A DNA stretch of 64,000 nt from Candidatus Atabeyarchaeum deiterrae (GCA_037310415.1 CP147780.1:1504001-1568000), one strand, 5' to 3'; positions 7,825-22,759 are shown, counted from the stretch's first letter. Translations and numbers: made by a program. The notes: generated from the sequence alone by a model not told the origin.

Positions 7825-9264
7825 CTATTTTTCAGGCGAGGTATCAGCATATTTCCAGCTTGTTCCTTTGGCTGTGTCCTCAATCACTATACCCATCTTC
7901 CCTAATTGGGCCCTGATGTCATCGGATTTTTTCCAGTTCTTCTTCTTTCTTGCCTCCTCCCTTTCCTCGATCAGTTTCCTAGCTTCGTCAGGCAGTTCTG
8001 TCTCAGTCTTTTCAACTTCAGCGCCAATACTTGACAATCCGAACACAAGTGAAAGTCTTCTCAAGGTCTCAAGTATGAGAGTGAGTGAGCTCTTGTCTGC
8101 TCCAGAAGTCAATGCCTTGTTGCCGAGTTTGACGAGATCTTGGAAGGCGACAACGGCTTCGGGAGTGTTGAAGTCGTTATCCATGGCCTCAATGTATCTT
8201 CGCTCGATCTCAGCTGCACCATGTTCATATGAACTGACATCCTCACCTTGTTTCTCGTTGCTTAGCTCTTCTACTTGCTTCTCTAGTCCTTGAACGACGC
8301 TTGTTACCCTTGTGAGGTTCCTTTTTGCTTGCTCTAGGATCTTCTTCTCGAAATCAATCGGGCTCCTATAATGAGCAGAAAGGATGAACAACCTGAAGGC
8401 ATCGGCGTCGCACTCCTGCAGAAGGTCGCGGATCGTGACGAAGTTACCAAGTGACTTCGACATCTTCTCCCCTCCAGCATTGAGAAAACCAGTATGTAGC
8501 CAGTACTTTACGAAGGGCTTCTTTCCAGTGGCAGCCTCAGACTGTGCAATCTCATTCTCATGATGGGGGAATATTAGATCTTTAGCTCCGCCGTGAATGT
8601 CGAACCTGTCACCAAGGTACTTCGTCGACATCGTTGAGCACTCAATGTGCCACCCTGGGCGTCCCCGACCCCAAGGACTCTCAAAGGACAATTCACCCTT
8701 CTTGGAGTTCTTCCAAAGTGAAAAGTCAACAGGATCCTTCTTCTTCTCATCGATCTCAACTCTGGCTCCAGATAGAACTTCATGAATAGACTGATGAGAT
8801 AGATCACCGTACCCTAGGAACTTCTTGACAGAGAAGTAAACATCACCATTGGCTTGGTAAGCATAGCCCTTCTTGATCAGAGTCTGAATGAATTTGATGA
8901 TCTCAGGAACATGGTCGGTAACACGCGGGTAGATGTCAGCCTTCTCGATCCCAAGTGCATTGAGATCTTTCTCCGCTTCTAGTGCAAATCGAGATGCTAG
9001 CTCAATAGGGCTGATTCCGAGTTCATTGGCCCTAGCAATAATCTTGTCGTCAACATCAGTTATATTCTGGACATGATAAACATCGTATCCTCTATACTTT
9101 AGATAGCGCTTTATCACGTCAAATGCGACGTATGTTCTCGCATGGCCAATATGAGCATAGTCATACACGGTGACCCCACACACATACATTTTCACTTTCT
9201 TTCCTTCGAGTGGCTTGAACTCTTCCAGCTTCTCAGTTAAACTGTTGTAAACTGCAAGCACCAT
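7825..9264 (-). CDS. cysS: cysteine--tRNA ligase (copy 2)
   Basis: CGVTVYDYAHIGH, GRPGWHIECS, FPHHENE, KMSKS; start taken at MVLAVYN. Confidence 0.96.
   Translation of the reverse strand: MVLAVYNSLTEKLEEFKPLEGKKVKMYVCGVTVYDYAHIGHARTYVAFDVIKRYLKYRGYDVYHVQNITDVDDKIIARANELGISPIELASRFALEAEKDLNALGIEKADIYPRVTDHVPEIIKFIQTLIKKGYAYQANGDVYFSVKKFLGYGDLSHQSIHEVLSGARVEIDEKKKDPVDFSLWKNSKKGELSFESPWGRGRPGWHIECSTMSTKYLGDRFDIHGGAKDLIFPHHENEIAQSEAATGKKPFVKYWLHTGFLNAGGEKMSKSLGNFVTIRDLLQECDADAFRLFILSAHYRSPIDFEKKILEQAKRNLTRVTSVVQGLEKQVEELSNEKQGEDVSSYEHGAAEIERRYIEAMDNDFNTPEAVVAFQDLVKLGNKALTSGADKSSLTLILETLRRLSLVFGLSSIGAEVEKTETELPDEARKLIEEREEARKKKNWKKSDDIRAQLGKMGIVIEDTAKGTSWKYADTSPEK
8489..8559. repeat. 71-bp exact repeat shared with 9983-10053 (inside both cysS copies)
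   Basis: ccagtatgtagcc...gcaatctcattctc is identical in both genes; flanking codons diverge. Confidence 0.9.
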
Positions 9265-9297
9265 CTCAAATACACACTCCTTCATGTTGCATTTGTA

Positions 9298-10758
9298 CTA
9301 GGTAGGCTTCCTCTTCCACCTTGTTCCTTCTGAACTGTCTTCAAGTACATATCCTATCTTTTCCAGTTTCTCTCTTATCTCATCAGCTTCTTCCCAACGC
9401 CTGCGTCTTCTTGCCTCTTCTCGTCTCTTGATTAAAGTCGCGACATCCTCAGGTAGATCTTCTTGACTTGTGGTTTGCGCCTTACTTATGCTGGATAATC
9501 CAAAGACTGCAGCTAATTCCTTGATTGTTCTTAGAATAAGTTCTAAACCACTTGGACTTGCGTTGCTGCCGAGTGTCTTGTTGGCGAATTTCAGGAGATC
9601 CCTGAATACGACCAACGCCTGGGGACTATTAAAGTCGTTATCCATGGTGTCAACAAATCTATCCTCGATTCTGGTAAGTTCGGCTCTGACTGTTTCAATC
9701 TCCCGGGTTTCCTGATTATGTTGGGCACTAGTAGATACATCTCGGTTCTTTCTCGAAGTTTCGCTGACACTTGTTTCCAATTGCTCTACCGTATTCTTTA
9801 TCCCAGCCAACATGCTTGAAGCATTGTCTAGTGCACGCTCGCTGAACTCGATTGGGGTGCTGTAGCGAGTTGAGATAATGTAAAGCCTGAATGCATCAGG
9901 GTGCCACTTCTTTATGAGATCTCTCACTCTAATGAAGTTGCCCAGTGACTTGGACATCTTTTCTCCATTGATGTTGAGCAACCCAGTATGTAGCCAGTAC
10001 TTTACGAAGGGCTTCTTTCCAGTGGCAGCCTCAGACTGTGCAATCTCATTCTCGTGGTGCGGAAAGATCAGATCCGTGCCACCCCCATGTATCTCTATCT
10101 GCTCACCGATGTACTTCATTGCTAGGGTGGAGCATTCGATGTGCCAACCTGGGCGGCCTCTTCCCCAAGGACTATCAAAGGACAACTCTCCAGGTTTTGC
10201 TGTTTTCCACAGGGCGAAATCCACTGGGTTTCTCTTTCTGTGATCTACTTCAACGCGGGCCCCTGACATGACCTCGGCAGGAGACTGGCGGGATAGAACT
10301 CCATAGTCTTTGAATTTCTCAACGGAGAAGTAAATGTCTCCGTCAGCCTGATAAGCGTATCCTCTTTTCATCAACCTGCCTATCAATTCGATGATATCTG
10401 GTATGTGCTCAGTAACACGAGGGTATGCATCTGCTCTTTCGATTCCAAGTGCATCTAGATCTTTCAGGGATTCTGCTGTGAACTCTGATGCAAGTTCCAG
10501 CGGATCGACACCAAGCGTCCGCGCTTTTGAGATAATCTTATCTTCGACATCGGTGGTATTCTGAATGTAAGTGACATCGTAGCCTCTGAAAATCAAATAG
10601 CGCCTAATCAAGTCGAAAGCAACGTAAGTTCTTGCATGACCTAGATGTACGTAGTCTTGAACCGTCATACCACATACATACATTCCCACCTTTCCTTCAT
10701 TGAAGGGCTTGAACGTCTCCAACTTTCGGGTCAGTCTATTTAGAACCTTCAGAGCCAA
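9298..10758 (-). CDS. cysS: cysteine--tRNA ligase (copy 1)
   Basis: CGMTVQDYVHLGH, GRPGWHIECS, FPHHENE, KMSKS. Confidence 0.94.
   Translation of the reverse strand: MALKVLNRLTRKLETFKPFNEGKVGMYVCGMTVQDYVHLGHARTYVAFDLIRRYLIFRGYDVTYIQNTTDVEDKIISKARTLGVDPLELASEFTAESLKDLDALGIERADAYPRVTEHIPDIIELIGRLMKRGYAYQADGDIYFSVEKFKDYGVLSRQSPAEVMSGARVEVDHRKRNPVDFALWKTAKPGELSFDSPWGRGRPGWHIECSTLAMKYIGEQIEIHGGGTDLIFPHHENEIAQSEAATGKKPFVKYWLHTGLLNINGEKMSKSLGNFIRVRDLIKKWHPDAFRLYIISTRYSTPIEFSERALDNASSMLAGIKNTVEQLETSVSETSRKNRDVSTSAQHNQETREIETVRAELTRIEDRFVDTMDNDFNSPQALVVFRDLLKFANKTLGSNASPSGLELILRTIKELAAVFGLSSISKAQTTSQEDLPEDVATLIKRREEARRRRRWEEADEIREKLEKIGYVLEDSSEGTRWKRKPT
9983..10053. repeat. 71-bp exact repeat, second copy
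   Basis: Identical to 8489-8559. Confidence 0.9.
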
Positions 10759-10975: not shown

Positions 10976-11102
10976 TGGAGGGGAGTAGGGGAATCGAACC
11001 CCTGTCGCGGACTATCCACGGTGTGGGTACTGCAGGCCTTAGAGTGAGCTTGGCTAGGTCGGCCAGAAGCTCATCGCCCCTAAGCCACTCGGACAACTCC
11101 CC
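10976..11102 (-). tRNA. tRNA-Cys(GCA) with two introns (28/29, 36 nt, 11074-11039; 37/38, 16 nt, 11029-11014), CCA encoded
   Basis: Spliced product GGGGAGT-TG-TCCG-AGTGGCTT-AGGG-G-CGGGC-CTGCAGA-GTCCG-CGAC-AGGGG-TTCGATT-CCCCT-ACTCCCC-T-CCA is a 75-nt cloverleaf with U73 and G37; relaxed BHB motifs at both junctions; adjacent to cysS genes. Confidence 0.88.
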
Positions 11103-11161
11103 AACATTGCTGATGTACCTCTCCCACGATAGTGAGGTTTATGATTAGTATTTTAAACTTG

Positions 11162-11169
11162 TGGATTTC
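11162..11169. repeat. left target-site duplication TGGATTTC
   Basis: Exact match at 17329-17336, each copy abutting a terminal inverted repeat. Confidence 0.9.
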
Positions 11170-11229
11170 GGTTCTGTCAAGTCTTCGATTGATGCCTAGT
11201 TTTCCTCTCCCTGTAAAGTTTCGGTTGAT
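11170..11229 (+). repeat. left end: terminal IR plus subterminal copy 36 bp inward
   Basis: CTGTCAAGTCTTCGATTGAT (ends 11193) and CTGTAAAGTTTCGGTTGAT (ends 11229). Confidence 0.85.
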
Positions 11230-11313
11230 ATCCTTGTTAATTTGGCCTAGGATGAGAAATAGCATTAACCGTCGTAGGATGCTATCAAAAATCGGTCTCA
11301 CGGGACTAGATTC

Positions 11314-11883
11314 TCAGAGTGTGTTGTCACATTTTGCGCAGAGGTGTCTTTTTGAAGAGATAATAGTTGCCGCCTCTTTACCACATCTCTCACAAATATA
11401 GGGGACTATTCCAAACTCGTCTTTGCCGTTTGGTTCTCTTAACCCCTTTTTGACTTCGTAAAGATACTTATTGAACCTTACAAAATCTCTTTCAGGCCTG
11501 AAACTTCCCCATTCTCTTAGTTTTCTGCTTTCTTCATCCTCCCTTATGAAGACCATATCAAACAGAGCATCTTTTCCCTCGTTCTCATTGCTAACCCCGT
11601 ACGCTATCACTGTATATTCTTCTCCGTTAACTCTGAATGAAACCTCATCCCAAAGTGGGTATCCACCGTTGATATCAAGAGATCCTCTCTGTTCATGCTC
11701 TATCAGTTTTTCTGCGCTCACTCTATCCATTGTATTCTCAAAACTGTTGTTTTCAAGAAGATACTGTGCTTCAAACCAGAAAGCAATATTATCATATGGG
11801 CCTTCCCACAATCTGTCTTCCTTAGGAATCTCAGTTACTATTCTTCTAAACCTTTGCAATTTCTCTGCATATTCTTTGTCCAT
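11314..11883 (-). CDS. hypothetical protein with C-terminal Zn finger (transposon cargo)
   Basis: 189-aa ORF, CERC...CAKC, purine-rich RBS; last gene of the cargo operon. Confidence 0.7.
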   Translation of the reverse strand: MDKEYAEKLQRFRRIVTEIPKEDRLWEGPYDNIAFWFEAQYLLENNSFENTMDRVSAEKLIEHEQRGSLDINGGYPLWDEVSFRVNGEEYTVIAYGVSNENEGKDALFDMVFIREDEESRKLREWGSFRPERDFVRFNKYLYEVKKGLREPNGKDEFGIVPYICERCGKEAATIISSKRHLCAKCDNTL

Positions 11884-11911
11884 CTTGCAGTGTCGCTCTC
11901 CTAACTAACCC

Positions 11912-12667
11912 TTACAACATTAATAGGCCTCCATTCTTTTTCAGCATGAACATTCTGCCTTCTTCCATCGATCCATTATGCCTAATACTGAATGGCCTAG
12001 GAATACCGATGTCCGTCCAGTATCTCGGTTTGGTCATGATTTCTTCAGCGGCGAGTATTCCACTAGCACCTATCTCTGACCAACCTTTTTTCTCAGTAAT
12101 AATCCATTCCGTAGAAAGTGTTGATCTGATCTTCAAAAGCTCACGCTCTGACATAGTAAAGCCATGGCTAAGAAGTTGTCCTTTAATGATCCTATAAGGG
12201 TTGACTATATCGGGTATCCCAGACATCTGCCGCTTTCTATGTACCATATTACTGTAAGCATTCTGCCTATAGAAAATCTGAGCACTACCGTCCAACTCTT
12301 TCAGTGATGCTAGACTGCCCTTGATTGGTTCCGTAACTCCACGGGTCTTAATCACCACATCTGGCACTTCACCAGAAACCCCAAGAATGTCCTCAAGAAT
12401 TTCCTTTTGTGTCACTGGTGCTACATCATCAGGCTCTGGGTTCCCCATCTGATAGCAATACTTATCGACATCGTATGGATGCTTCACTATTTCGCCAAAT
12501 GTCGTCCTCTTCTCGCTAATTCTCCTAGTATTGACTTGAGATACTTCTGCCCCACACCAGAAAAGCTCTGTCTTCTTTTCACCGACGTCACACTGCTTCC
12601 TTAACAAGGGTAGAAAATCCATTCGCCTTATCCATGAATCTGGATATGGTTTAATTTCTACACTCAT
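11912..12667 (-). CDS. hypothetical protein (transposon cargo)
   Basis: 251-aa ORF with strong GGAGG RBS, co-oriented with neighbours; no family recognised. Confidence 0.7.
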   Translation of the reverse strand: MSVEIKPYPDSWIRRMDFLPLLRKQCDVGEKKTELFWCGAEVSQVNTRRISEKRTTFGEIVKHPYDVDKYCYQMGNPEPDDVAPVTQKEILEDILGVSGEVPDVVIKTRGVTEPIKGSLASLKELDGSAQIFYRQNAYSNMVHRKRQMSGIPDIVNPYRIIKGQLLSHGFTMSERELLKIRSTLSTEWIITEKKGWSEIGASGILAAEEIMTKPRYWTDIGIPRPFSIRHNGSMEEGRMFMLKKNGGLLML

Positions 12668-12718
12668 TTCTTCCCCCTCCGTACTGAACTCTTCCTTCTA
12701 TTCCTTCAGATGGTTTGT

Positions 12719-14059
12719 TTATTTCTTCATCTTCTCAGAGAGTCCTTTCTCAGCGGTTCTTAACTTAGCTAGTTGTTCCACACGCATCTTTTCGTATGCC
12801 TTCTCTGCCTGTGTTATCCTGACATTGTGGCATAGCCAGCCTAGATGGTTCGGCTCACCGCAGACTGGACAAAATAACGCTTTATCGTCTACATGATCCA
12901 GAGCCTTCTGTGCCTCAATAGTTCTGGACCAAGCTTGGTACTCTGGAAGCATCTTCTTTGCGAGGAGTTCTATTTGACTCTCCCTAGATGCATCCACTAT
13001 AGCTTTGACTCTCTCTGGTGAGTAAATCTCTCTTGCTTCCTCAACACTGGTCTTAATCTCGTCTACACGCTTCAGTTGTTCATCCTTAGATTGCTTGGTT
13101 GCATCCAACTCATTCAGGACTCTCTCATGGAACTCCCTTGGAAGTTCTGAAACAACCTTCCCAACAACCTCTGGCTCCATACCACTCTTCGGGTTGATGG
13201 TGGCTTCAATGACTCTGCGTGGCGCACCAGACTTCTCAGCTTCCTTTATGATCTTTGGAATCGCCTGAATGCTATCTGCTTCTAGCCCTGACGCACGTTT
13301 GACAAGCCTTTCCTTATCCTTCGTTGGCAAACTCTGAATCTCTGGAGTCTTCGAGATCTTCACAAGTGTTTCTATTTGTTCTCCCTTTTTTATCTCACCA
13401 GAACCAAGAGCTTTGAATGCCTCTTTCCTCATAGTCTCATCCACAATCCGATCTGCGTCTCTTATGGAGGTAACTCCTACTATGCCATCCTCCACAAGTT
13501 TCCATTGTTCAGGATGCCCCAAAAGTTTGATGTAGATGTTGATTGTCGTTCGCGGCACTCCAATATCGTTTGAAAGCTCGGATTGACCCTGTGGCTTAGT
13601 TCCACCCTCTCCACCTTTTTTCGCATCTGCTAAGCTTAGCAGATGCTCCCGATCCTTCTCATACATCTTCTTGACTTCTGCGATGGTGTGGAACTTACCA
13701 CTGTTGATATTCACGACACCCGTTGCATACGCCCACATGCGGTCTAACTCGTTCAGACTTTTCCTTAACGCATCATCTGCGAGCTGACGCTCAAACCATT
13801 GTTGATCAGACAACCCAACTTTCTTTCGTACTGGGACTTTGACACCAACTTTTATCGCCGCTAAAACTCGATTGTGGCCTCTACGAATCATATTATGCTC
13901 ATCAACCTCTATCGGCTCTATTACTCCTTGATGCTTGTAGTTCTCTGAGAGACTAGCTATGAAGTCTTGGTCAAAGACTGTTCTTGGGTTGTTTGGATCA
14001 GACTTCAGAGATTTCGGATCGGTATAGTTTATTTCAATTCTCGATTCGGGTTCAGCCAT
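12719..14059 (-). CDS. ParB/Srx N-terminal-domain protein with HTH-like segment and helical C-terminus
   Basis: DPNNPR...GVIEPIEVD...GHNRVLAA ParB-N motifs; QSELSNDIGVPRTTI HTH; CPVC near the C-terminus. Confidence 0.78.
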   Translation of the reverse strand: MAEPESRIEINYTDPKSLKSDPNNPRTVFDQDFIASLSENYKHQGVIEPIEVDEHNMIRRGHNRVLAAIKVGVKVPVRKKVGLSDQQWFERQLADDALRKSLNELDRMWAYATGVVNINSGKFHTIAEVKKMYEKDREHLLSLADAKKGGEGGTKPQGQSELSNDIGVPRTTINIYIKLLGHPEQWKLVEDGIVGVTSIRDADRIVDETMRKEAFKALGSGEIKKGEQIETLVKISKTPEIQSLPTKDKERLVKRASGLEADSIQAIPKIIKEAEKSGAPRRVIEATINPKSGMEPEVVGKVVSELPREFHERVLNELDATKQSKDEQLKRVDEIKTSVEEAREIYSPERVKAIVDASRESQIELLAKKMLPEYQAWSRTIEAQKALDHVDDKALFCPVCGEPNHLGWLCHNVRITQAEKAYEKMRVEQLAKLRTAEKGLSEKMKK

Positions 14060-14207
14060 TTCCTAATTCACCTTTTGAGCATTTTTTTACCATTTCAATG
14101 AGCTTCTTGATTATAATATCGTAGGTGTCACCTTTTTTACCCATGTCTGCGAGGATTTCGCGTGTCTCCTTTGAAATTTGAATGGTGGTTATGTCTTCTC
14201 TATTCAT
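14052..14207 (-). CDS. small ribbon-helix-helix DNA-binding protein (51 aa)
   Basis: Below ORF-track cutoff; MNREDITTIQISKETREILADMGKKGDTYDIIIKKLIE; stop overlaps the ParB-like start. Confidence 0.8.
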   Translation of the reverse strand: MNREDITTIQISKETREILADMGKKGDTYDIIIKKLIEMVKKCSKGELGNG

Positions 14208-14213
14208 TTATAT

Positions 14214-14303
14214 CGCCTGTAGATTCTATAGGCGTTATTTCCATTTAAGTTTTTCCGTAGTCCCCATAACACTTATATGCCATAGTGGCTATAGTTACTA
14301 TGG
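14214..14303. promoter_or_regulatory. divergent promoter region with two palindromic operators
   Basis: CGCCTGTAGA-T-TCTATAGGCG (14214-14234) and CCATAGTGGCTA-TAGTTACTATGG (14280-14303), each just downstream of a TATA-like box on its own strand. Confidence 0.55.
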
Positions 14304-15469
14304 TGATGAAGATGTTGACTCTGCAAGAGCTTGAGAAAGTCCGTGAAGAAAGAGGCTTAGAAATCGCGAAGGCAAAGGAAACCCAAGTAACTCGAATTGA
14401 TGATGCCAGTTACAAGGTTCTCTCCCAGAGTGGCAACGGAGCTTACCTCGTCTCTCTTACTGAGGATGGATGGGTGTGCGAGTGCCCAGACTACGGGTTC
14501 AGAGGGGTTAAATGTAAGCACATCTGGGCTGTGGAGATCAGCATCACCCTCAAGGAACAAGTTAGGAAGAATGTTGTCCTTGAGGAGGTTACGGTTTCAA
14601 AGTGCCTCTTCTGCCACTCCGAGAACATAAAGAAGTTTGGAGTCAGACGAAACAAGAGCGGCGGTATTCAGCGTTTCCTCTGTGGTGCATGTGGAAGGAC
14701 TTTCAGCGTGAACATAGGCTTCGAGAAGATGAAGCATAATCCTCAAGCCGTCACGTCAGCTATGCAACTATACTTTAGCGGTGAATCTCTGCGTAACACT
14801 ATGAGGTCTCTGAGGTTGCTGGGTGTCGGCGTTTCACATCAGACGGTTTACAACTGGATTAGCAAGTACGTGAAGCTGATGAAGGAATACGTTGAGAAAC
14901 TAACTCCTAATGTGGGCGATACATGGAGAGCCGATGAGCTATACGTGAAAATCAAAGGTGACATGAAGTACCTGTTTGCCTTAATGGATGATGAGACACG
15001 GTTTTGGATTGCTCAAGAGATAGCCGACACCAAGTATAGACACGATGCGGGAAACCTCTTCCGAAAGGGAAAGGAACTCACGGGGAAGAAGCCTCTAACC
15101 CTGATAACGGATGGTCTCTCAGCTTATCACCTTGCGTACAAGAAGGAGTTTTACACGAACTCCAAACCGAGAACGGAGCACATCCAACACATCACTATTA
15201 GAGGAGACCATAACAATAACAAGATGGAGAGGTTCAACGGAGAAATCAGAGGCAGAGAAAAAGTCATAAGAGGACTAAAGAAAAGCAACACGCCAATCCT
15301 TAAAGGCTACCAAGTATTTCACAACTTCATAAAACCACACGAAGGATTAGACGGCAAGACCCCTGCGGAAGCCTGCGGGATTGAGGTCAAGGGGGACAAT
15401 AAGTGGATAACTCTGATCAAAAACGCAACCCAGATGACGAAAGTTGACAGGAAGACGGAGAACACCTAG
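14285..15469 (+). CDS. IS6/IS240-like DDE transposase with N-terminal SWIM Zn finger and Zn ribbon
   Basis: SWIM CECPD...CKH; CLFC...CGAC; HTH VSHQTVYNWI; WRADE, ITDG, NNKMERFN; TPAEACG. True start may be the ATG at 14312. Confidence 0.92.
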   Translation: MAIVTMVMKMLTLQELEKVREERGLEIAKAKETQVTRIDDASYKVLSQSGNGAYLVSLTEDGWVCECPDYGFRGVKCKHIWAVEISITLKEQVRKNVVLEEVTVSKCLFCHSENIKKFGVRRNKSGGIQRFLCGACGRTFSVNIGFEKMKHNPQAVTSAMQLYFSGESLRNTMRSLRLLGVGVSHQTVYNWISKYVKLMKEYVEKLTPNVGDTWRADELYVKIKGDMKYLFALMDDETRFWIAQEIADTKYRHDAGNLFRKGKELTGKKPLTLITDGLSAYHLAYKKEFYTNSKPRTEHIQHITIRGDHNNNKMERFNGEIRGREKVIRGLKKSNTPILKGYQVFHNFIKPHEGLDGKTPAEACGIEVKGDNKWITLIKNATQMTKVDRKTENT

Positions 15470-15491
15470 ATGGCGAATACTTGACAGAACC
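15432..15491 (-). repeat. internal right-end copy (IR plus subterminal site, 36 bp apart)
   Basis: Reverse complement GGTTCTGTCAAGTATTCG matches the left IR 17/18; paired sites agatgacgaaagttgacag (15432) and agatggcgaatacttgacag (15468). Confidence 0.85.
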
Positions 15492-15770
15492 AATTCTAGC
15501 CCCTTTGAAGTAAGCTCAGCTTTTTGGACAATAAGAACAACGCAACCAACCCCAGAAGGCGCATGGTAAGCATGTAAAGACTTAAATACCCTGAGCTGCC
15601 TAAAAATCAAACATATAGGAAGATACATGCGCGTTTACTTCATTTTAGGCGGGAAGGGAGTAGTTGAACTTGGCTGGAGCGCGTGTGCTAAATTGTAAAG
15701 CAACGCATATCCACCTCGGATGGGGATTATTCTGAAACTAACCAGAATCAAGATACTAAGTTGATGAATT

Positions 15771-16412
15771 ATGACTAGAACGCTTAAAGAAAAGGCTATA
15801 GACTATTTTCTTACCCTTTATTTGGTTGATGATGCGTTCTCTCGCTTGAAAATAGGTTTTCTACCTGACACGAAATTGCAGAAATTAGTTTTCCTATCAG
15901 AAAAGTCGATGATTCATGAACGCGAGAAAGGATTCAATTTCAATTTTATCAAGCTCACGCATGGCCCATTCAGTCAAGAGCTTAAGACTAGTTATGACAA
16001 TCTATCTCAAATAGGAATCCTAGGCGAGTTTGGATTAACACCAACAACTAATTCCAAAATAATTTTAGAGGATTTTCAAGAGATAATCAAAAGAAATACG
16101 ACATTCTTTCAGAAAATCACAACCGTGAACAACGATTTTGCTAGAATGCCACTAGAAGAACTTCTCAAGATAATATACGCAATGCCATGGGGTGGAAAAG
16201 ACCAGACCATTGCAGATCTACAACCACGGACACCCATGCTTTACCCATTGAAACCGAACAATGTCAAAATCGAATTTGAATTGACAAATGACGATGTTGA
16301 AAACTTGCTCATGAATTTTGACGTCAAAACAGTCAAAATGTCACTCCAAGCGATGAAAGAAATGAGAGCTGGGGGTTTGCTTACTCATGAGCAGGTCTTC
16401 TCCAATCTATAA
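15771..16412 (+). CDS. Panacea (DUF4065/SocA-like) domain antitoxin with RelB-like C-terminal tail
   Basis: TKLQKLVFL...FIKLTHGPFSQEL motif; tail AMKEMRAGGLLTHEQVF. Confidence 0.7.
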   Translation: MTRTLKEKAIDYFLTLYLVDDAFSRLKIGFLPDTKLQKLVFLSEKSMIHEREKGFNFNFIKLTHGPFSQELKTSYDNLSQIGILGEFGLTPTTNSKIILEDFQEIIKRNTTFFQKITTVNNDFARMPLEELLKIIYAMPWGGKDQTIADLQPRTPMLYPLKPNNVKIEFELTNDDVENLLMNFDVKTVKMSLQAMKEMRAGGLLTHEQVFSNL

Positions 16413-16719
16413 GGATGTGTATACACCTCTTTTTGTTAGCCAGCTTGAGAAACTTGAGAAGAAAGCTAGGGTACGCGCGGAACATATAAGAGACGAGACA
16501 CAAGCCATTCTCGTTGACCCCTATAGGAACATAAAGTTTGGCAAAGCCATATACCGCGGAAAAAGAGAATGGAAAGTTGACGGCGATAGAATACTCTTTG
16601 TTGTATGTAAGCAATGCAGGAAATTGGGCCATCAGAAGTACAATTTATGTGGCGACTGTGAAAGTACTGCTGATGAGACTGTTGTGTTCGCATCTATTGT
16701 AGAAAGCCACAATTACTAA
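16387..16719 (+). CDS. RelE/ParE-like toxin with inserted Cys4 Zn-binding motif
   Basis: YTPLFVSQLEKL...DPY...REWKVDGDRILF, CKQC...CGDC, terminal H-x-Y; overlaps the antitoxin gene. Confidence 0.65.
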   Translation: MSRSSPIYKDVYTPLFVSQLEKLEKKARVRAEHIRDETQAILVDPYRNIKFGKAIYRGKREWKVDGDRILFVVCKQCRKLGHQKYNLCGDCESTADETVVFASIVESHNY

Positions 16720-16792
16720 GCTTGAACCTGTTTTAGGGTCTTCACGTAGGCGCGCTTAACCATATCGTCAATCGTTTTTCACCGCATTTTGC

Positions 16793-16851
16793 ATCAACCG
16801 AAGGGTAACACCCTCACACATCACTCAGATCAACCGCAGAGGTAAATCACC
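16793..16851 (-). repeat. degenerate internal right-end-like site pair
   Basis: ATCAACCG at 16793 and 16829 (36 bp apart), same core and spacing as the outer right end (17269/17305). Confidence 0.6.
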
Positions 16852-17250
16852 TTGGGTAATGTGGCAAAAAAGAAACTATCAACCAAAGAAATCGAAAATA
16901 AGGCAATAGAATGCGTAGAGGGTTATCTGAAGAGCAGGGGAGAAAAGCCAGAAATCACTAAGAAAGGCATCGATGTTATTTCTGGCGAAAAATGGATTGA
17001 AGTTAAGGGAAGTATGAAAAAGGAAACCAATCTAAGAACAACATGGCAAACATTAAAATATGTTGAGAAAAACGATAAACTCCGTGATTTCTTCATTTAC
17101 TATGTCTTTGACATGGAATCAGGGAATCCGAAACTGCTGATTTTCGATCATGATACCTTCGAGAAATATAAACTCAAAGAAATAAGATGGATAATACAAC
17201 CCAGGAAGATAATAAGGGAAACAGGTAAACCTGAGATAATTCGATTGTGA
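16852..17250 (+). CDS. stand-alone PD-(D/E)xK nuclease, DUF3883-like
   Basis: IENKAIE...GIDVIS...IEVKG...FFIYYV pattern. Confidence 0.65.
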   Translation: MGNVAKKKLSTKEIENKAIECVEGYLKSRGEKPEITKKGIDVISGEKWIEVKGSMKKETNLRTTWQTLKYVEKNDKLRDFFIYYVFDMESGNPKLLIFDHDTFEKYKLKEIRWIIQPRKIIRETGKPEIIRL

Positions 17251-17268
17251 AAACTACCTGATAGTACC

Positions 17269-17328
17269 ATCAACCGACTTTTGACAGCCCACCGAGAAAC
17301 AGCGATCAACCTAAGACTTTACAGAACC
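17269..17328 (-). repeat. right end: subterminal site plus terminal IR
   Basis: Reverse complements CTGTCAAAAGTCGGTTGAT and GGTTCTGTAAAGTCTTAGGTTGAT, 36 bp apart. Confidence 0.85.
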
Positions 17329-17336
17329 TGGATTTC
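17329..17336. repeat. right target-site duplication TGGATTTC
   Basis: Exact match to 11162-11169. Confidence 0.9.
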
Positions 17337-17756
17337 AAGCACATTGAATTTGTGTTGGGCTTTCAACCCAGTCAACGAATCTCCTTTCTGAACACTCTCA
17401 GCCATCTATGAAACTCTAGTTTATGCCTTATTGCTAACCTAGTCAGCCGACTTCCAGATGATTTGCCAAAGATTCTCTAAAATGGCCGACTGTGTTCAAT
17501 ACCATTCTATCAACTACAATAGGCCTGCTTCTCTTGCCTGCCGAGAAACGGCACGGAGTCTCTTAATGGCGAGCTATGATCTATTGCGCGAGTGCAACTC
17601 GCTTTGACTCCCTCCGATGATAAGATGTACGCGCAATCTGACTGTTTGTGGAAGTCGACAAGTGGTGTTGCCGAGGGTTGACCGCGAAGAGGCTGTCTAG
17701 AGGCGATAATCTTAAATGCTCCAGTCTTCTCAAGTCTTCTCAGATAACTTCATAAG

Positions 17757-18485
17757 TTGACAACGTTAACGGAGGGGACAACATTACAGAGAAGATCCGT
17801 CTGTGCTCTTATGCTGCTTCTTGGAGTTCTGCTAACGATATCATGCGTACCTTCGCAAGGTGTTAACTATCCGAAAATAGGGGTAAAGATAGGAGACTAT
17901 GCAGACTACTCATACACATTTTGGTTCAACGGATCATATCATACGCCCTTCGATTGGTATAGAATTCTTGTCGCTAACATTAGCCTATCGTCGATCCCTG
18001 GTTACACTGAATTGAGCATTGAGTTCGATGGACATTTTGCCAATGGAACGTGGTATTCTCCATGGACGGGTCACTTGGACTTGAGCAATAATAGCGTCTT
18101 GACTGGCGGGGTTGTCGACGATATCATGTGGATTGTCCCGGCAGATTTGGTTAATGGGCAATTGGTTTCAATCCCATATGTGATAAACGAGACTACCTCA
18201 ATGTTAGTTGCAGGTGCAGTCAGGACTGTCAACCATCTGAGAATTGCTGCAGATAACTTTGGCGCAGGAGACTATCACCCAGACATCTACTGGGACAAAG
18301 CTACTGGAGTGCTGGTCAAAGCCAACATACTTAGACATAATACTTGGACGAACCTCACAATGTTGTCAACAAACATGTGGTCAAATGGTGACTGGACAAC
18401 CTTGCTCCTGATAAGCGGTGGAGTTGCCCTAGTCATAGGAGTTGCGTGCTTAGTTGCTTTTGTGATTCGAAAGAGGCGAAGCTAA
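17757..18485 (+). CDS. secreted, C-terminally membrane-anchored surface protein
   Basis: Signal-like N-terminus, several N-x-S/T sequons, YWDKATGVLV, C-terminal TM helix followed by RKRRS. Confidence 0.75.
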   Translation: MTTLTEGTTLQRRSVCALMLLLGVLLTISCVPSQGVNYPKIGVKIGDYADYSYTFWFNGSYHTPFDWYRILVANISLSSIPGYTELSIEFDGHFANGTWYSPWTGHLDLSNNSVLTGGVVDDIMWIVPADLVNGQLVSIPYVINETTSMLVAGAVRTVNHLRIAADNFGAGDYHPDIYWDKATGVLVKANILRHNTWTNLTMLSTNMWSNGDWTTLLLISGGVALVIGVACLVAFVIRKRRS

Positions 18486-18863
18486 TCGTCAATTAAGAGC
18501 GATAACGACGCGGTAGCTGCGTGGCGTGTCCTCGAAGCAAACCGTGTCGATTCAAGTACTCTTTTTCGTAATTCTTGGTGTGTCAAATCAATCTTAGCAT
18601 CAATTGCTTAGGAGCTACGAGCAGGCTCTGAGCGCCTGATTGGCATCACGTTCATATAGTGTATTTTTTCCTCTTGGATATTTGTTTCAGTCTGCAACTT
18701 GATATCATTGCGGAGCATAGTTGCCTTTGAATTCTTTCGCTAAGAAGACTTATGCTTGCGAACACGCATATGGAGCCTTTGAGACTGCCAACTACCAAAG
18801 GAAATGCGTGACGGAGCAACATTCGAGAACTCAGAACAATCTGAATCTGGGGAAGAAACTCCC

Positions 18864-19727
18864 ATGACGAACAGACTAACAAAGGCGGAGTTCACTAATC
18901 TAGGCAAGATCATGTATCCAGAGGCGAAAATCACGAAGGCTCAGACAATCGAGTACTATATCCGAATGGCCCCTGCGATGCTGGATCTGCTTCATGATAG
19001 ACCATTGGTTTTGACCAGATTCCCAAATGGGATCAATCGGGAAAGCTTCTACGAAAAAGACGCGCCTCTTGGTGCACCATCTTGGATCAAGACTTTCAGG
19101 AAGTATTCCGAAGCGGCTGAAAGAGACATAAACTATGTCCTCTGTAATGATCTTGACACACTTATTTGGCTTGCTAATCTTGCTGCACTCGAGATCCATG
19201 TTACTCTCTCAAAGGCAACTTCTCTTGAAAACCCGGATCTATTGCTTTTTGATTTGGATCCTCAGCCTCCAGCAAGTTTTGATGATGTTGTCTCTGTTGC
19301 TCTACTACTTAAGGAAACCTTAGAAGAACTAGGTTTGAAATCTTTCACAAAAACCTCTGGAAAGAGAGGGCTTCACATCGTGGTTCCTATCGTTAGTGAA
19401 TACAGTTACCGGCAAACTAGAGAGTTCGTTCATCTCATCGGAAAACACTTAGTTAGGAGATCAGAAATCGTAGTCTCCGAGTTTTCAAGAGAAAAGAAGC
19501 CAGGCACCATATATATAGACTACTTGCAGAATTCTCATGGAAGGACTATGGTAAGCCCTTACAGCCTCAGAGCTACACCTGAAGCTACCGTGTCGACACC
19601 GATTGATTGGAAAGATGTCAAGAAAGGATTAAAACCTGAGACGCTGAATCTGTTCACTGTGCCCAATATTAATGAGCGGCCATGGGAGGGCATGCTACGG
19701 GACAGCCAAAGGCTGGATGTGGATTAG
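18864..19727 (+). CDS. ligD: LigD-type primase-polymerase (NHEJ Pol)
   Basis: RFPNG, FYEK, FDLDP, KTSGKRGLH, IDYLQN, PYSLRA, VSTPIDW; in-frame upstream ATG at 18804. Confidence 0.93.
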   Translation: MTNRLTKAEFTNLGKIMYPEAKITKAQTIEYYIRMAPAMLDLLHDRPLVLTRFPNGINRESFYEKDAPLGAPSWIKTFRKYSEAAERDINYVLCNDLDTLIWLANLAALEIHVTLSKATSLENPDLLLFDLDPQPPASFDDVVSVALLLKETLEELGLKSFTKTSGKRGLHIVVPIVSEYSYRQTREFVHLIGKHLVRRSEIVVSEFSREKKPGTIYIDYLQNSHGRTMVSPYSLRATPEATVSTPIDWKDVKKGLKPETLNLFTVPNINERPWEGMLRDSQRLDVD

Positions 19728-19728
19728 C

Positions 19729-20529
19729 ATGGCAAAGAAACAAGGGGAAAAACGAATCTCAAGAAGACCGATCTGGACTGGTAGCATAACAATTGGCTTA
19801 GTGAATGTTCCAGTGAAGCTACTTACCATGATATTCGATAAAGGCATCTCCTTCAGATTCCTGCATAAACACGATGGGCAGCCACTTAGATACGATAAGG
19901 TTTGTATCGAGGAAAACAAGGTTGTTCCTTGGGAAGAAATAATCCGAGGATACGAAGTCAGGAAAGGCCAATTCATAACCTTCGAAAACGATGAACTTGA
20001 AGCCGCTAGACCAGAATCTGATCAGAGGATTCGCATTGACAAATTCGTCGACTACTCTACAATAGACCCAATCTACTTTGATAAATCCTATATGCTTACG
20101 CCCGACAACAGTGAAGATGCCTACAGCTTGCTTCTAGCGGCTTTGGAGATGATGGGCAAAGCTGGAACCGGAAGAATCACACTCAGAACAAAAGAATATC
20201 CCCTCATCGTGCACGCCTACAAGGGGGCATTGGTTCTGACAACACTGCGCTATGCCTATGAAGTCGCAGATCCAGGTGACCTAGAAGAGCCCATGAAGCT
20301 AAAGCAGCCAAGAAAGGACGAATTAGATCTAGCGATGAAAATCGTCACTGATCTCTCCGGACAATTTGATTCAGCTCAGTACAAGGACGCATATAGAGAA
20401 AGAATAGAGAAACTCATCCAGATGAAACTCAAAGGAGAGCGCATCGTTTTCGAGAAGCCTGTCAAAGAGGAAGCAAAGGAATTAATGATAGCCCTCAAAG
20501 AAACTCTCAAGCAGCTGAAAAAGAAATGA
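19729..20529 (+). CDS. ku: Ku DNA end-binding protein
   Basis: IWTGSITIGLVNVPVKL, IIRGYE, IDPIYFDKSY, YKDAYRERI. Confidence 0.93.
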   Translation: MAKKQGEKRISRRPIWTGSITIGLVNVPVKLLTMIFDKGISFRFLHKHDGQPLRYDKVCIEENKVVPWEEIIRGYEVRKGQFITFENDELEAARPESDQRIRIDKFVDYSTIDPIYFDKSYMLTPDNSEDAYSLLLAALEMMGKAGTGRITLRTKEYPLIVHAYKGALVLTTLRYAYEVADPGDLEEPMKLKQPRKDELDLAMKIVTDLSGQFDSAQYKDAYRERIEKLIQMKLKGERIVFEKPVKEEAKELMIALKETLKQLKKK

Positions 20530-21920
20530 GACAATACTACAAGCCAATGCTCGCAAATTCTGCAGCAGCACCCTTCACATCAAGAGACTGGATTTTCGAG
20601 ATCAAATGGGATGGGATCAGAGCCATCAGTTATGTTGACAACGAACTGAGCGTACGAAGCAGAAACGGGAAGGAAATGAAAGACAAGTTTCCAGAGCTGG
20701 AAGAACTGAAGAGCGTAGCGATGAATACTGTCCTTGATGGCGAGATCGTCGTCATGCAAGAGAAGAGACCGGATTTTCAGACTCTTTTGGAGAGGAGCAG
20801 AGCTACCTCTATTCGTGATGCACAGTATATCGCCAGTAGCGTCCCGGTTACATATGTGGTCTTCGACATTCTTGAGAAAGATGGTGAGCGTCTGGCCAGC
20901 CTTCCGTTGGTAGAAAGAAAGAGAATACTAAGAGAACGAGTCAAGGATGGGAAATATGTCGTGTTGTCTGTCTTCGTAGAAGAGGATGGAGACACATACT
21001 ATAAGGAAGCTATCAAAAGAGGCGTCGAGGGCATCGTCGCCAAGAAAAAAGACAGTCCATATGAATCAGGTGTGCGAAGCAAGAATTGGCTAAAGGTAAA
21101 GAAAGTTCAGACGTGCGACTGCGTGATCTTTGGATATACTAAGGGCGAAGGATTCAGGGAAGGAACTTTTGGAGCCCTAATCCTGGGACTATATGACAAC
21201 AAGACTCCAGTGTTCGTAGGCAAAGTTGGAACTGGATTTTCCGATAGCACCATGCGGACGCTTCTTGAAGCATTTGAGGAGCTTAAGGCAGGCAAAGAGA
21301 CTCTCGCTGGCGTTGATGTCCAAGAGGAGATCACATGGCTCAAACCAGAGCTAGTCTGCGAGGTTGCATATCAGAATCTCACAAAAGAAGGTAAGCTGCG
21401 CATGCCAAGGTTCCACGGACTTCGACCAGACAAGATTCCGACTGAGTGCACCCTGGATCAAGTGAAACAAAGTGGCCTCTCAGAGTACGGCTCAAAGAGA
21501 GACTTCACCGTCACACCGGAGCCAAAAGGTGTCTCAAAGGTTACCGGCGGTAGAACCTTCGTCGTACAGGAACACCATGCAAGAAGACTCCACTATGACC
21601 TGCGATTAGAAAATGAAGGCGTCCTAAAGAGTTGGGCTGTTCCAAAAGGAGTCCCCGAGAAACCTAGTGAAAAGAGACTCGCAGTCGAAGTCGAGGATCA
21701 CCCACTAGAGTACGGACGATTTGAAGGAGAAATACCCAAAGGACAATATGGAGCAGGAACAGTTAGAATCTGGGACAAAGGCACTTACGAGCAAAAGACA
21801 TGGACAGCAGATAAAATCGAAGTTTTCCTAAAGGGAGAAAGACTGTCTGGAAGGTACGTGCTCGTGAAGTTCAAGAAAGCGGGCGAAAAGGGATGGATCC
21901 TCATGAAAGCGAGAGATTGA
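20526..21920 (+). CDS. ligD: LigD ATP-dependent ligase fused to C-terminal 3'-phosphoesterase (PE) domain
   Basis: EIKWDGIR, LDGEIV, EGIVAKK, VGTGF, LRMPRF, then YGSKRDF..TPEP, QEHHARRLHYDLRLE, SWAVPKG, EDHPLEY. Confidence 0.93.
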   Translation: MRQYYKPMLANSAAAPFTSRDWIFEIKWDGIRAISYVDNELSVRSRNGKEMKDKFPELEELKSVAMNTVLDGEIVVMQEKRPDFQTLLERSRATSIRDAQYIASSVPVTYVVFDILEKDGERLASLPLVERKRILRERVKDGKYVVLSVFVEEDGDTYYKEAIKRGVEGIVAKKKDSPYESGVRSKNWLKVKKVQTCDCVIFGYTKGEGFREGTFGALILGLYDNKTPVFVGKVGTGFSDSTMRTLLEAFEELKAGKETLAGVDVQEEITWLKPELVCEVAYQNLTKEGKLRMPRFHGLRPDKIPTECTLDQVKQSGLSEYGSKRDFTVTPEPKGVSKVTGGRTFVVQEHHARRLHYDLRLENEGVLKSWAVPKGVPEKPSEKRLAVEVEDHPLEYGRFEGEIPKGQYGAGTVRIWDKGTYEQKTWTADKIEVFLKGERLSGRYVLVKFKKAGEKGWILMKARD

Positions 21921-21921
21921 T

Positions 21922-22662
21922 ATGAAGAACCTCCACATAGGCACAATGGGCTGGAGCTACAATTTCTGGACCGGCAACTTCTACCCAGCAGGACTCAAAT
22001 CAGACGAGTTCCTAGCTGCATATTCGAAACACTTTGATACGGTCGAAGTAGACAACACGTTCTACAGAGTCCCCTACAAGAGCTCAGTTGAAAAATGGAA
22101 AGAGCAAACGCCAGCAGATTTCATTTTCTCTGCAAAATTCCCTCGAAAAGTGACACATCTCAAAGTGCTAAGGGACTGTGAGGAAGAGGTGCGATACTTC
22201 CTCGAGACGATGACAACTCTTCAAAACAAGCTTGGGCCACTACTACTTCAATTTCCCCCGAAGTTTGGGCCAAAAGATATTCCTGCTCTCAAAGATTTCA
22301 TTCCGATTTTGCCCAAAGGCTACAGATTCGCAGTGGAAGTAAGAAACAAGAACCTGCTTGTTGATAAGTTGTACTCGCTTCTGAGAGAAAACGGGATTGC
22401 ATTGGTCTTGCTAGATAGTCCAATTATGCCACGAATGGAAGAAGTGACTGCTAGTTTTCTCTACACAAGATGGGAAGGAGACAGAAACAAACTGAATGGG
22501 ACACTGGGAAGAGTCGAGATTGACAAAAGAGAAGATCTTCGCGATTGGAGCAAGAGAATAAGGAAAATGCTCGATGACTCAATCGAGGTTTTTGGGTACT
22601 TCAGCAAGTTCTACTCAGGTTACCCTCCATCAGATGCCATGGAACTCTTGAAGCTGATTTGA
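21922..22662 (+). CDS. DUF72 (YecE) family protein
   Basis: IGTMGWSY, VEVDNTFY, LLQFPP, AVEVRN. Confidence 0.9.
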   Translation: MKNLHIGTMGWSYNFWTGNFYPAGLKSDEFLAAYSKHFDTVEVDNTFYRVPYKSSVEKWKEQTPADFIFSAKFPRKVTHLKVLRDCEEEVRYFLETMTTLQNKLGPLLLQFPPKFGPKDIPALKDFIPILPKGYRFAVEVRNKNLLVDKLYSLLRENGIALVLLDSPIMPRMEEVTASFLYTRWEGDRNKLNGTLGRVEIDKREDLRDWSKRIRKMLDDSIEVFGYFSKFYSGYPPSDAMELLKLI

Positions 22663-22759
22663 CCTGAATTTGACCCATAAAACTCGGACAAATCAAAAAG
22701 ACTAATATCCCGTGGAGAACATAGGCAATTCTAACAATCACATCCTCGGAGGAGAGCGA

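Follow-up and report, generated by a model that had tools for sequence, protein, structure and literature searches.

According to a review of the IS6 family, these insertion sequences (ISs) have GG-tipped terminal repeats with a cTGT..aa motif and move cargo between direct repeats, with one passenger-carrying member, ISDsp3 (PMC7986276). A locus in the genome of Candidatus Atabeyarchaeum deiterrae raises the question of whether a transposase of this kind can carry a large cargo between a single pair of ends. The locus lies at 11162-17336 of a 64,000-nt stretch (GCA_037310415.1, CP147780.1:1504001-1568000), called the window below, in whose numbering all positions are given. An initial annotation, made from the sequence of the window, had described it as a precisely bounded 6.2-kb archaeal cargo transposon with bipartite ends. 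Our analysis leads us to conclude that 11170-17328 is very probably a 6,159-bp single-transposase cargo transposon that belongs to a large archaeal group related to IS6.

Ends and transposase of the element

The octamer TGGATTTC is present at 11162-11169 and again at 17329-17336, forming an exact 8-bp target-site duplication; the chance of 8/8 identity at two exact flanking positions is about 1.5e-5. The element proper occupies 11170-17328 (6,159 bp), and the coordinates 11162-17336 take in both duplicates. Its terminal inverted repeats are of the GGTTCTGT type, GGTTCTGTCAAGTCTTCGATTGAT at the left and GGTTCTGTAAAGTCTTAGGTTGAT at the right when read inward, and are identical at 21 of 24 positions. 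The 8-bp duplication and the 24-bp repeats of the initial annotation are both confirmed. The inverted pair stretches to 60-nt arms with 70% complementarity and was the longest inverted pair of the region in a repeat search. An inner site accompanies the terminal repeat at either end (CTGTAAAGTTTCGGTTGAT at the left, CTGTCAAAAGTCGGTTGAT at the right), and the hexamer-to-hexamer spacing is exactly 36 bp at both ends (11188 to 11224 and 17310 to 17274; CTGT to CTGT, 37 bp), just as had been read before. Seven passenger open reading frames (ORFs), four to the left and three to the right, flank one transposase gene, in agreement with the central position previously assigned to it, and an independent gene caller returned the same seven ORFs on a Logan contig. 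A genome-wide search found one transposase copy of this type in the host genome, which makes the element single-copy. The outer features are as follows.

11162-11169, no strand: left copy of the duplication, TGGATTTC, identical to 17329-17336
11170-11229, plus strand: two-part left end, IRL; terminal site GGTTCTGTCAAGTCTTCG followed by ATTGAT (11170-11193), inner site CTGTAAAGTTTCG followed by GTTGAT (11211-11229), hexamers 36 bp apart
14285-15469, plus strand: transposase, 394 amino acids (aa) from GTG 14285 or 389 aa from ATG 14300; SWIM finger C65-x-C67...C77-x-H79, zinc ribbon C107/C110/C133/C136, three helices at 153-203, then D217, D276, E315 and R322
17269-17328, minus strand: two-part outer right end, IRR3; terminal and inner hexamer both GTTGAT, with a spacing of 36 bp; served in the last insertion
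17329-17336, no strand: right copy of the duplication, TGGATTTC, identical to 11162-11169

The transposase matched two Pfam families, the IS6/IS240-type DDE domain PF13610 (9e-17, 61.9 bits against a cutoff of 27) and, at residues 54-86, the SWIM finger PF04434 (2.6e-6, 27.3 bits against a cutoff of 19.6), and the top-ranking NCBIfam model was the IS6 model NF033587. These matches bear out the earlier reading of an IS6-related transposase with a SWIM finger. Residues 107-141 matched zinc-binding modules of the IS1/IS1595 type in NCBIfam (NF050000, NF048018). In an alignment of 38 family sequences, C65, C67, C77 and H79 of the finger, C107, C110, C133 and C136 of the ribbon, and D217, D276, E315 and R322 were all invariant. 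Judged by its conserved frame and residues, the window's transposase looks catalytically intact. In an AlphaFold model (mean predicted local distance difference test score, pLDDT, 77.8), a small N-terminal part rich in beta structure is followed by a ribbon of three strands, the helices at 153-203 and a core with an RNase-H-like fold. The model's best Foldseek matches were generic DDE transposases (ISCth4) and retroviral integrases, and the 50 matches listed included no IS6 structure. The same gene showed a peculiarity in assemblies: the Logan contigs of all four runs break at 14700-15250, within the DDE region, where summed depth is up. Both signs are consistent with an assembly tangled by the numerous related transposases that other organisms contribute to these samples.

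A family of elements with two-part ends

A survey of one genome per GTDB species returned 237 related stretches from Bathyarchaeia, Methanoperedens, Methanoregula, Nitrososphaeria, Thermoplasmata and Asgard archaea (Atabeyarchaeia-1), and 80 loci were fetched (numbers of the L001 style refer to these fetched loci of relatives). At 40 of the 80, left and right ends of the GGTTCTGT type flank the transposase with an exact 8/8 duplication. The elements delimited in this way measure 2,031 to 8,093 bp (median 3,570) and none is a bare IS; six of the 40 (five relatives and the window's element) reach at least 6 kb, each with a clean duplication. The family terminal consensus is GGTTCTGTnAAgTC. An exhaustive HMMER search yielded 466 clusters (50% identity) at E<=1e-30, and most of the best 150 clusters align from before residue 45, that is, with the SWIM region included.

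Direct evidence of movement comes from two loci of one Bathyarchaeota metagenome-assembled genome, L034 (7639-10072) and L035 (7639-10072), which hold the same element, identical at 2,434 of 2,434 positions, between unrelated flanks and with differing duplications (CTGTTCGA and AGAGAGAG). Since an identical element occupies two sites with different duplications, elements of the family move as units. The terminal repeats of this element agree poorly (13/24), though it is evidently mobile.

At least 27 of 39 relatives have a small gene upstream of the transposase, AbrB/MazE-like in 14, ribbon-helix-helix (RHH)-like in eight and of two other small types in five, and six relatives carry Eco57I-type IIG restriction-modification genes. 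The window's element is thus a member of a large archaeal group in which the carriage of passengers is the rule, and which carries type IIG restriction-modification genes and probable toxin-antitoxin genes between uncultured archaea. With passengers between one pair of ends and one transposase, the window's element falls under the ISfinder-style label 'tIS'.

The two-part build of the ends is common to the family. All competent ends have a terminal site, GGTTCTGTnAAGTCtnCG followed by a hexamer, and a subterminal site, cTGTnAAannTCG followed by the same hexamer, about 27 or about 36 bp further in. The inner site (consensus cTGTnAAannTCG, then the hexamer) was found on 75 of 80 ends, and the multi-site ends proposed at the outset are borne out family-wide. 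The hexamer, which follows a conserved CG, varies among elements (GTTGAT, TTTGGT, TCGGAT, TCTGTT, GGGGGT, GCATCT, GGACAT), and each element's hexamer is common to all four sites of its two ends. Terminal and inner hexamers of the same element share 5.0 of 6 positions, a value that none of 10,000 permutations reached; between elements the figure is 2.86 of 6. For inner-left and inner-right hexamers the agreement is 5.4, against 3.0 between elements. The offsets between hexamers are bimodal, 26-29 bp at 51 ends and 35-38 bp at 24 ends, with the window's element in the 36-bp class, and the two classes lie about one helical turn apart.

A covariation test on 38 sequences, in which per-column identity was regressed on hexamer similarity with overall protein identity as covariate, pointed to the zinc ribbon (residues 107-141). 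Five of the top eight hexamer-associated columns (115, 118, 126, 130 and 139) lie in the ribbon, which makes up 27 of the 238 variable columns (hypergeometric p 6e-4); 200 label shuffles gave at most three. T139 goes with GT-type hexamers, and the rows concerned are spread over several separate parts of the transposase tree. At the same position, Y or F accompanies T-initial hexamers, and R, W or Q accompanies those that begin with GG, GC or AG; D118 goes with TC(G/T)G hexamers, and Y or W at 118 with TTTGGT. This pattern of covariation is suggestive of a zinc ribbon that may read the hexamer.

Isolated and abutting ends were also seen. Elsewhere in the window's own genome, at G000:C1:2230424-2230447 (L092 2425-2448, minus strand), a 24-nt terminal site of the GGTGAT class, GGTTCTGTTAACTCTTCGGGTGAT, stands alone and lacks an inner site; it is probably a relic of an element like that of Atabeyarchaeia-1. 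In L031 (11875-15660), two ends of the GTTGAT class stand tip to tip with 8 bp between them, and in this spacer a 3.6-kb element of the GCGCAT class is exactly inserted (11959-15581; duplication TGCCGCGA). The arrangement recalls the junction of an IS circle or tandem dimer that has served as target.

Serial right ends, cargo and movement

The outer ends and the duplication uphold the precise bounds of the initial annotation, and the exactness of the 8-bp duplication argues for joint insertion of the outermost ends. A single simple pair of ends does not describe the element: three right ends are arrayed in series inside it and at its edge. The two internal ones, which the initial annotation lacks, are the following.

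15432-15491, minus strand: internal right end IRR1; tip intact, GGTTCTGTCAAGTATTCG, 17/18 to the left end; 22 bp past the transposase stop
16793-16852, minus strand: internal right end IRR2; two exact CGGTTGAT sites 36 bp apart; tip degenerate, AGGTGATTTACCTCTGCG against GGTTCTGT

The right arm runs IRR1, the genes for proteins of 213 and 110 aa, IRR2, the NOV_C gene and IRR3. Both hexamers of IRR1 are YCATCT (CCATCT at the terminal site and TCATCT at the inner one, 36 bp apart), against the GTTGAT class of the outer ends, and a duplication flanking IRR1 was not found. The inner site of IRR1 lies within the last codons of the transposase (QMTKVDR), the same place as that of the native right end of the sister element in L003 (QPKVDKE); because of this equal placement, IRR1 is by position the ancestral right end. 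IRR2 is the only exact CG-octamer pair at the family spacing in the 64-kb window, with 0.06 expected in shuffles of the element. Only IRR3 combines an intact tip with a hexamer that fits the resident ribbon residues (F118, R130, T139). The serial ends, which divide the arm into cassettes, suggest stepwise capture, and the initial claim that the element moved as one piece is true of the last event only.

A comparable stacking is seen in L007 (3189-3342) of Atabeyarchaeia-1, where two left ends lie 78 bp apart. The outer one, of the GGTGAT class, pairs with a right end and a duplication, and the element carries an Eco57I-type IIG gene; the inner one is like the window's left end, spacer included. 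The idea that many relatives retain an inner left end 160-200 bp ahead of the transposase proved mistaken: its GGTACTGT motif lies within the AbrB-like gene.

Serial right ends might also be what is left of an array of the IS26 kind, in which full IS copies in direct repeat surrounded the cassettes as pseudo-compound transposons or translocatable units and the extra transposase genes were later deleted. IS6 elements classically move cargo between direct repeats (PMC7986276), the three right ends all have the same orientation, and elements of the family insert at or next to each other's ends (L031, and the stacked left ends of L007, L013, L020, L032 and L033). Against this, the solo ends keep only the two-part module of about 60 bp, where random deletion should leave varied lengths; BLAST against the relatives' right ends and transposase 3' regions found no similarity beyond the end modules of IRR2 and IRR3; and the genome holds no second transposase copy or fragment. 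We regard such an origin as doubtful, with a real minority chance of being right.

The cargo between these ends comprises seven genes.

11314-11883, minus strand: passenger ORF, 189 aa; weak match to a zinc ribbon at the C-terminus; closes the left-arm operon
11912-12667, minus strand: passenger ORF, 251 aa; no family found
12719-14059, minus strand: passenger ORF, 446 aa, ParB/Spo0J-like; ParB_N followed by a region like a helix-turn-helix (HTH)
14052-14207, minus strand: DUF7557 gene, 51 aa; divergent from the transposase; overlaps the start of the ParB-like gene by 8 bp
15771-16412, plus strand: cassette 1, gene 1, 213 aa; SocA/Panacea-like fold; antitoxin candidate
16387-16719, plus strand: cassette 1, gene 2, 110 aa; 26-nt overlap with gene 1; matched no family; putative toxin partner
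16852-17250, plus strand: cassette 2, 132 aa; NOV_C (NO VEIN C-terminal, PF13020), 26.6 bits against a cutoff of 22.1

The 51-aa gene heads the four-gene operon of the left arm and occupies the place that an AbrB- or RHH-type gene has in most relatives; it is a probable regulator, the local version of those of the family. The ParB-like gene is the largest of the cargo, and its protein matched PF02195 (2e-4), TIGR00180 (1e-9) and phrog_4715 (2.7e-14), with template modelling (TM) scores of 0.58-0.63 to ParB clusters. For the 251-aa protein (model pLDDT 0.28), the Atlas gave nothing informative.

For cassette 1, the Atlas model of the 213-aa protein is confident. Its TM score is 0.88 to a cluster of 503 members, only 20% of them with PF13274, and 0.56-0.59 to clusters fully annotated as Panacea; its relatives bear the JGI label 'YwgA'. 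The protein had no Pfam match at E<=0.01 and no match in a related-locus search, and PADLOC gave it weak matches only (PDC-M19A 3.9e-6, DarG 9e-4). By tblastn on the fetched loci, the pair recurs as cargo of the other-class element in L031 (58% and 51% identity for the 213-aa and 110-aa proteins). From fold, overlap and recurrence, the two genes are a probable toxin-antitoxin pair of the Panacea type. Of the defence or addiction cargo first proposed, addiction is plausible, with a Panacea/SocA-like candidate and an overlapping partner; defence found no support, since the PADLOC defence models matched none of the element's proteins convincingly and the largest gene is ParB-like.

With cassettes and internal ends in view, one may ask whether the 6.2-kb unit ever moved at all. 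A smaller ancestor with the outer ends could have made the duplication, and most of the cargo, perhaps with the transposase module and IRR1, could have come later by nested insertion or recombination in situ. The duplication dates the outer ends only, the other-class hexamer of IRR1 hints at recombination, relatives show nested and stacked ends, and the element is single-copy. We nevertheless hold this course of events to be quite improbable: neither internal duplications nor internal ends in pairs point to a nested insertion and no YCATCT-class left end was found, the resident zinc-ribbon residues fit the outer ends and not IRR1, and each of the six elements of at least 6 kb has its clean duplication.

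The explanation that we favour starts from the enzyme. The transposase would bind two sites per end, its zinc ribbon (118, 130 and 139 among other residues) reading the hexamer; the two ends would then be synapsed, cleaved at the GG tips and inserted with an 8-bp stagger. The route could be replicative cointegration, as in IS6, or cut-and-paste, between which no sequence signature distinguishes. By F118, R130 and T139, the resident enzyme would be of the GTTGAT class, which fits the left end, IRR2 and IRR3. IRR1, with its non-cognate hexamer, and IRR2, with its ruined tip, would be passed over: because only IRR3 is both intact and cognate, the transposase would skip the inner ends and move the whole 6.2 kb. 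The active right end may thus have shifted outward twice, capturing one cassette each time. We tentatively propose, as an account that is possible and somewhat short of even, an undescribed archaeal group related to IS6 in which the zinc ribbon reads an evolvable 'address' hexamer at four sites; an end would be usable only with a tip and an address that both suit the resident enzyme, so that internal ends would be silenced by a change of address or ruin of the tip, and the element would extend to the next cognate end, swallowing toxin-antitoxin and restriction-modification cassettes. If true, this would offer a simple and general way for an IS to become a cargo transposon, and also a naturally occurring set of mutually orthogonal transposase/end pairs, active in Bathyarchaeia, methanogens, ammonia oxidisers and Asgard archaea.

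Further sites of the window's element were sought in genomes and contigs. The host genome is a single contig of 2.76 Mb from the same family as Atabeyarchaeia-1, with which the window is syntenic up to about 11158 and again from about 22735; the stretch 11158-22735 corresponds to about 200 bp there. The transposon thus adjoins another strain-specific block, and Atabeyarchaeia-1 has no orthologous empty site. The right flank (17329-19200) had no DNA match among 30 relatives. Contigs from runs of two studies hold the element at the same site, and those that cover it do not differ by a single letter; among the contigs of four runs, none joined the flanks across the element, although contigs cannot show absence. 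The predicted empty-site 27-mer and the 27-mers of the element's ends were absent from the metagenome and genome contig collections, and the exact transposase was found on one contig only, in the same context. The empty site on which the initial annotation had staked its reading was accordingly found neither in relatives nor in the contigs of four runs nor in the two contig collections.

These searches bear on whether the element is an immobile fossil, a single insertion that is now inert or domesticated and is kept for its toxin-antitoxin cassette or its ParB-like operon. Its single copy, its unvaried presence at one site in the covering contigs of both studies' runs, and the failure to find a contig joined across it or another copy would all agree with this. 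The transposase frame is intact, however, with its catalytic and zinc ligands conserved, and the four sites of the two outer ends all survive with cognate hexamers; the insertion is also not old, because the duplication is still perfect. We consider a fossil unlikely.

Several points weigh against the proposed capture by serial ends and the placement near IS6. Neither an empty site nor another copy of the element turned up, so the case for mobility of the 6.2-kb unit would be built on the duplication and on the analogy of its relatives. Stacked or serial ends occur in only about eight of the 40 relatives (L007, L013, L020, L032, L033, L059 and L066 among them), and the link between ribbon and hexamer comes from 38 related sequences with shared ancestry crudely controlled. 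The change of both IRR1 hexamers to one new word is not explained by simple decay; recombination with an other-class element is our guess. As to the placement, NF033587 scored 118.3 bits, just short of its cutoff (125), the IS6-family transposases that are the closest bacterial relatives on plasmids have a low identity of 26-31%, and Harmer and Hall doubt that archaeal and long forms belong in the IS6/IS26 family (PMC6807381).

Surroundings and comparison with known systems

The neighbourhood of the element has features of its own. The strain-specific block to its right (17337-22735) contains a 242-aa ORF, a LigD primase-polymerase, Ku, a LigD ligase with phosphoesterase, and DUF72, and encodes a complete end-joining repair set. 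To its left, at 10985-11106 on the minus strand, is a 116-nt stretch that is 98% identical to Atabeyarchaeia-1; about 60 bp separate its 5' end from the transposon, which lies upstream. An acceptor stem, a D arm of class-II type and a T arm with GGGGTTCGATTCCCC can be made out in it. ARAGORN did not call this stretch, and its only Rfam match was a weak one to the tRNA clan. It looks like an intron-bearing tRNA of the Leu or Ser type. Further left, two adjacent minus-strand stretches (about 7830-9282, and 9298-10758) are about 70% identical and have the same match in Atabeyarchaeia-1; the second is a cysteinyl-tRNA synthetase by Pfam, which suggests a tandem duplication of cysS.

Among known systems, the nearest is the IS6/IS26 family (IS26, IS257, IS6100; archaeal ISH14, ISC774 and ISMja1), with which the element shares the PF13610 DDE domain, GG-tipped repeats, an 8-bp duplication and an HTH ahead of the core. 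Both of its ends start with GGTTCTGTCAAG and have the cTGT and aa motifs, and TGGATTTC stands on both sides. Together with the single transposase in the genome, the domain, ends and duplication are in line with the initial view of a unit element from the IS6 clade; it is not a composite pair. The differences are of build: catalogued IS6/IS26 members have 0.7-0.9 kb, one gene and a single repeat of 14-20 bp, and simple ISs of this kind about 0.7-1.8 kb with one gene, whereas the window's element has 6,159 bp and seven passengers besides its transposase; the enzyme, at 394 aa, contains two additional zinc modules, and either end spans about 60 bp and holds two sites. Archaeal members are given as 671-778 bp with transposases of 206-231 aa in Table 5 of Harmer and Hall (PMC6807381). 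In the IS6 review, zinc-finger-extended transposases occur only in clostridial clades, and repeats are 15-20 bp (PMC7986276).

It is these clostridial groups, ISCpe7 (clade h/VII) and ISTet2 (clade i/VIII), that gave the best bacterial matches; they have the zinc-finger extension, CTGTTA-type repeats and 8-bp duplications (PMC6807381). Unlike the window's element, they are simple bacterial (Clostridia) ISs of 1.2-1.8 kb without passengers. Enzymes of the ISCpe7 type are 28-31% identical to the window's transposase in alignments that start at residue 106 or 129, past the SWIM finger of the latter, and run to 373, so that the HTH and the DDE core are included and, in the longer alignments, the zinc ribbon too. 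A clear second site with a repeated hexamer was not evident in the one ISCpe7 copy read.

Two other types of transposon were tried and rejected. The element is not a composite or pseudo-compound transposon, as it has one transposase gene and its extra ends are solo modules of about 60 bp. A Tn3-type unit transposon (Tn3 transposase, repeats of about 38 bp, 5-bp duplication, resolvase and res site) is ruled out by the IS6-type transposase and the 8-bp duplication, and domain and profile searches found no recombinase or resolvase family among the element's ORFs. Several transposase-binding sites per end are familiar from Tn7, Mu and IS21. The likeness of the window's element to these is in the several sites per end, which would permit a multi-subunit synaptic complex and the discrimination of one end from another; it differs in having a transposase of a family unrelated in sequence, only two sites per end and an element-specific hexamer, with no accessory ATPase or target selector found.

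Within Asgard archaea, aloposons and the integrated elements of Atabeyarchaeia also carry cargo, and some encode ParB-like proteins (PMC8813620; PMC11529989). Aloposons integrate at tRNA sites and have tandem giant genes and a MinD/ParA-like ATPase, with no IS6-type transposase or repeats described (PMC8813620); kinship with them was rejected on this different mode of integration and these hallmark genes. The 11-bp att motif reported for Atabeyarchaeia elements is absent from the window. The Atabeyarchaeia paper lists five 'IS-like transposons' with ends and family undescribed (PMC11529989), and neither SWIM nor passenger genes come up in a survey of archaeal ISs from 2026 (PMC13343696). We found no published description of the group in the IS6 literature (ISfinder and TnCentral not covered), and the initial statement that the element is not of a described family is so far consistent with this.

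The two-site ends with helical-phase spacing, the apparent recognition code of zinc ribbon and hexamer in many specificity classes, and serial ends as probable intermediates of cargo capture would all be testable. What they describe is not a new principle of transposition. Members of the IS6 family are the textbook case of cargo moved only by paired copies; here, in relatives of that family, cargo between one pair of ends is the rule, in many archaeal phyla including Asgard.

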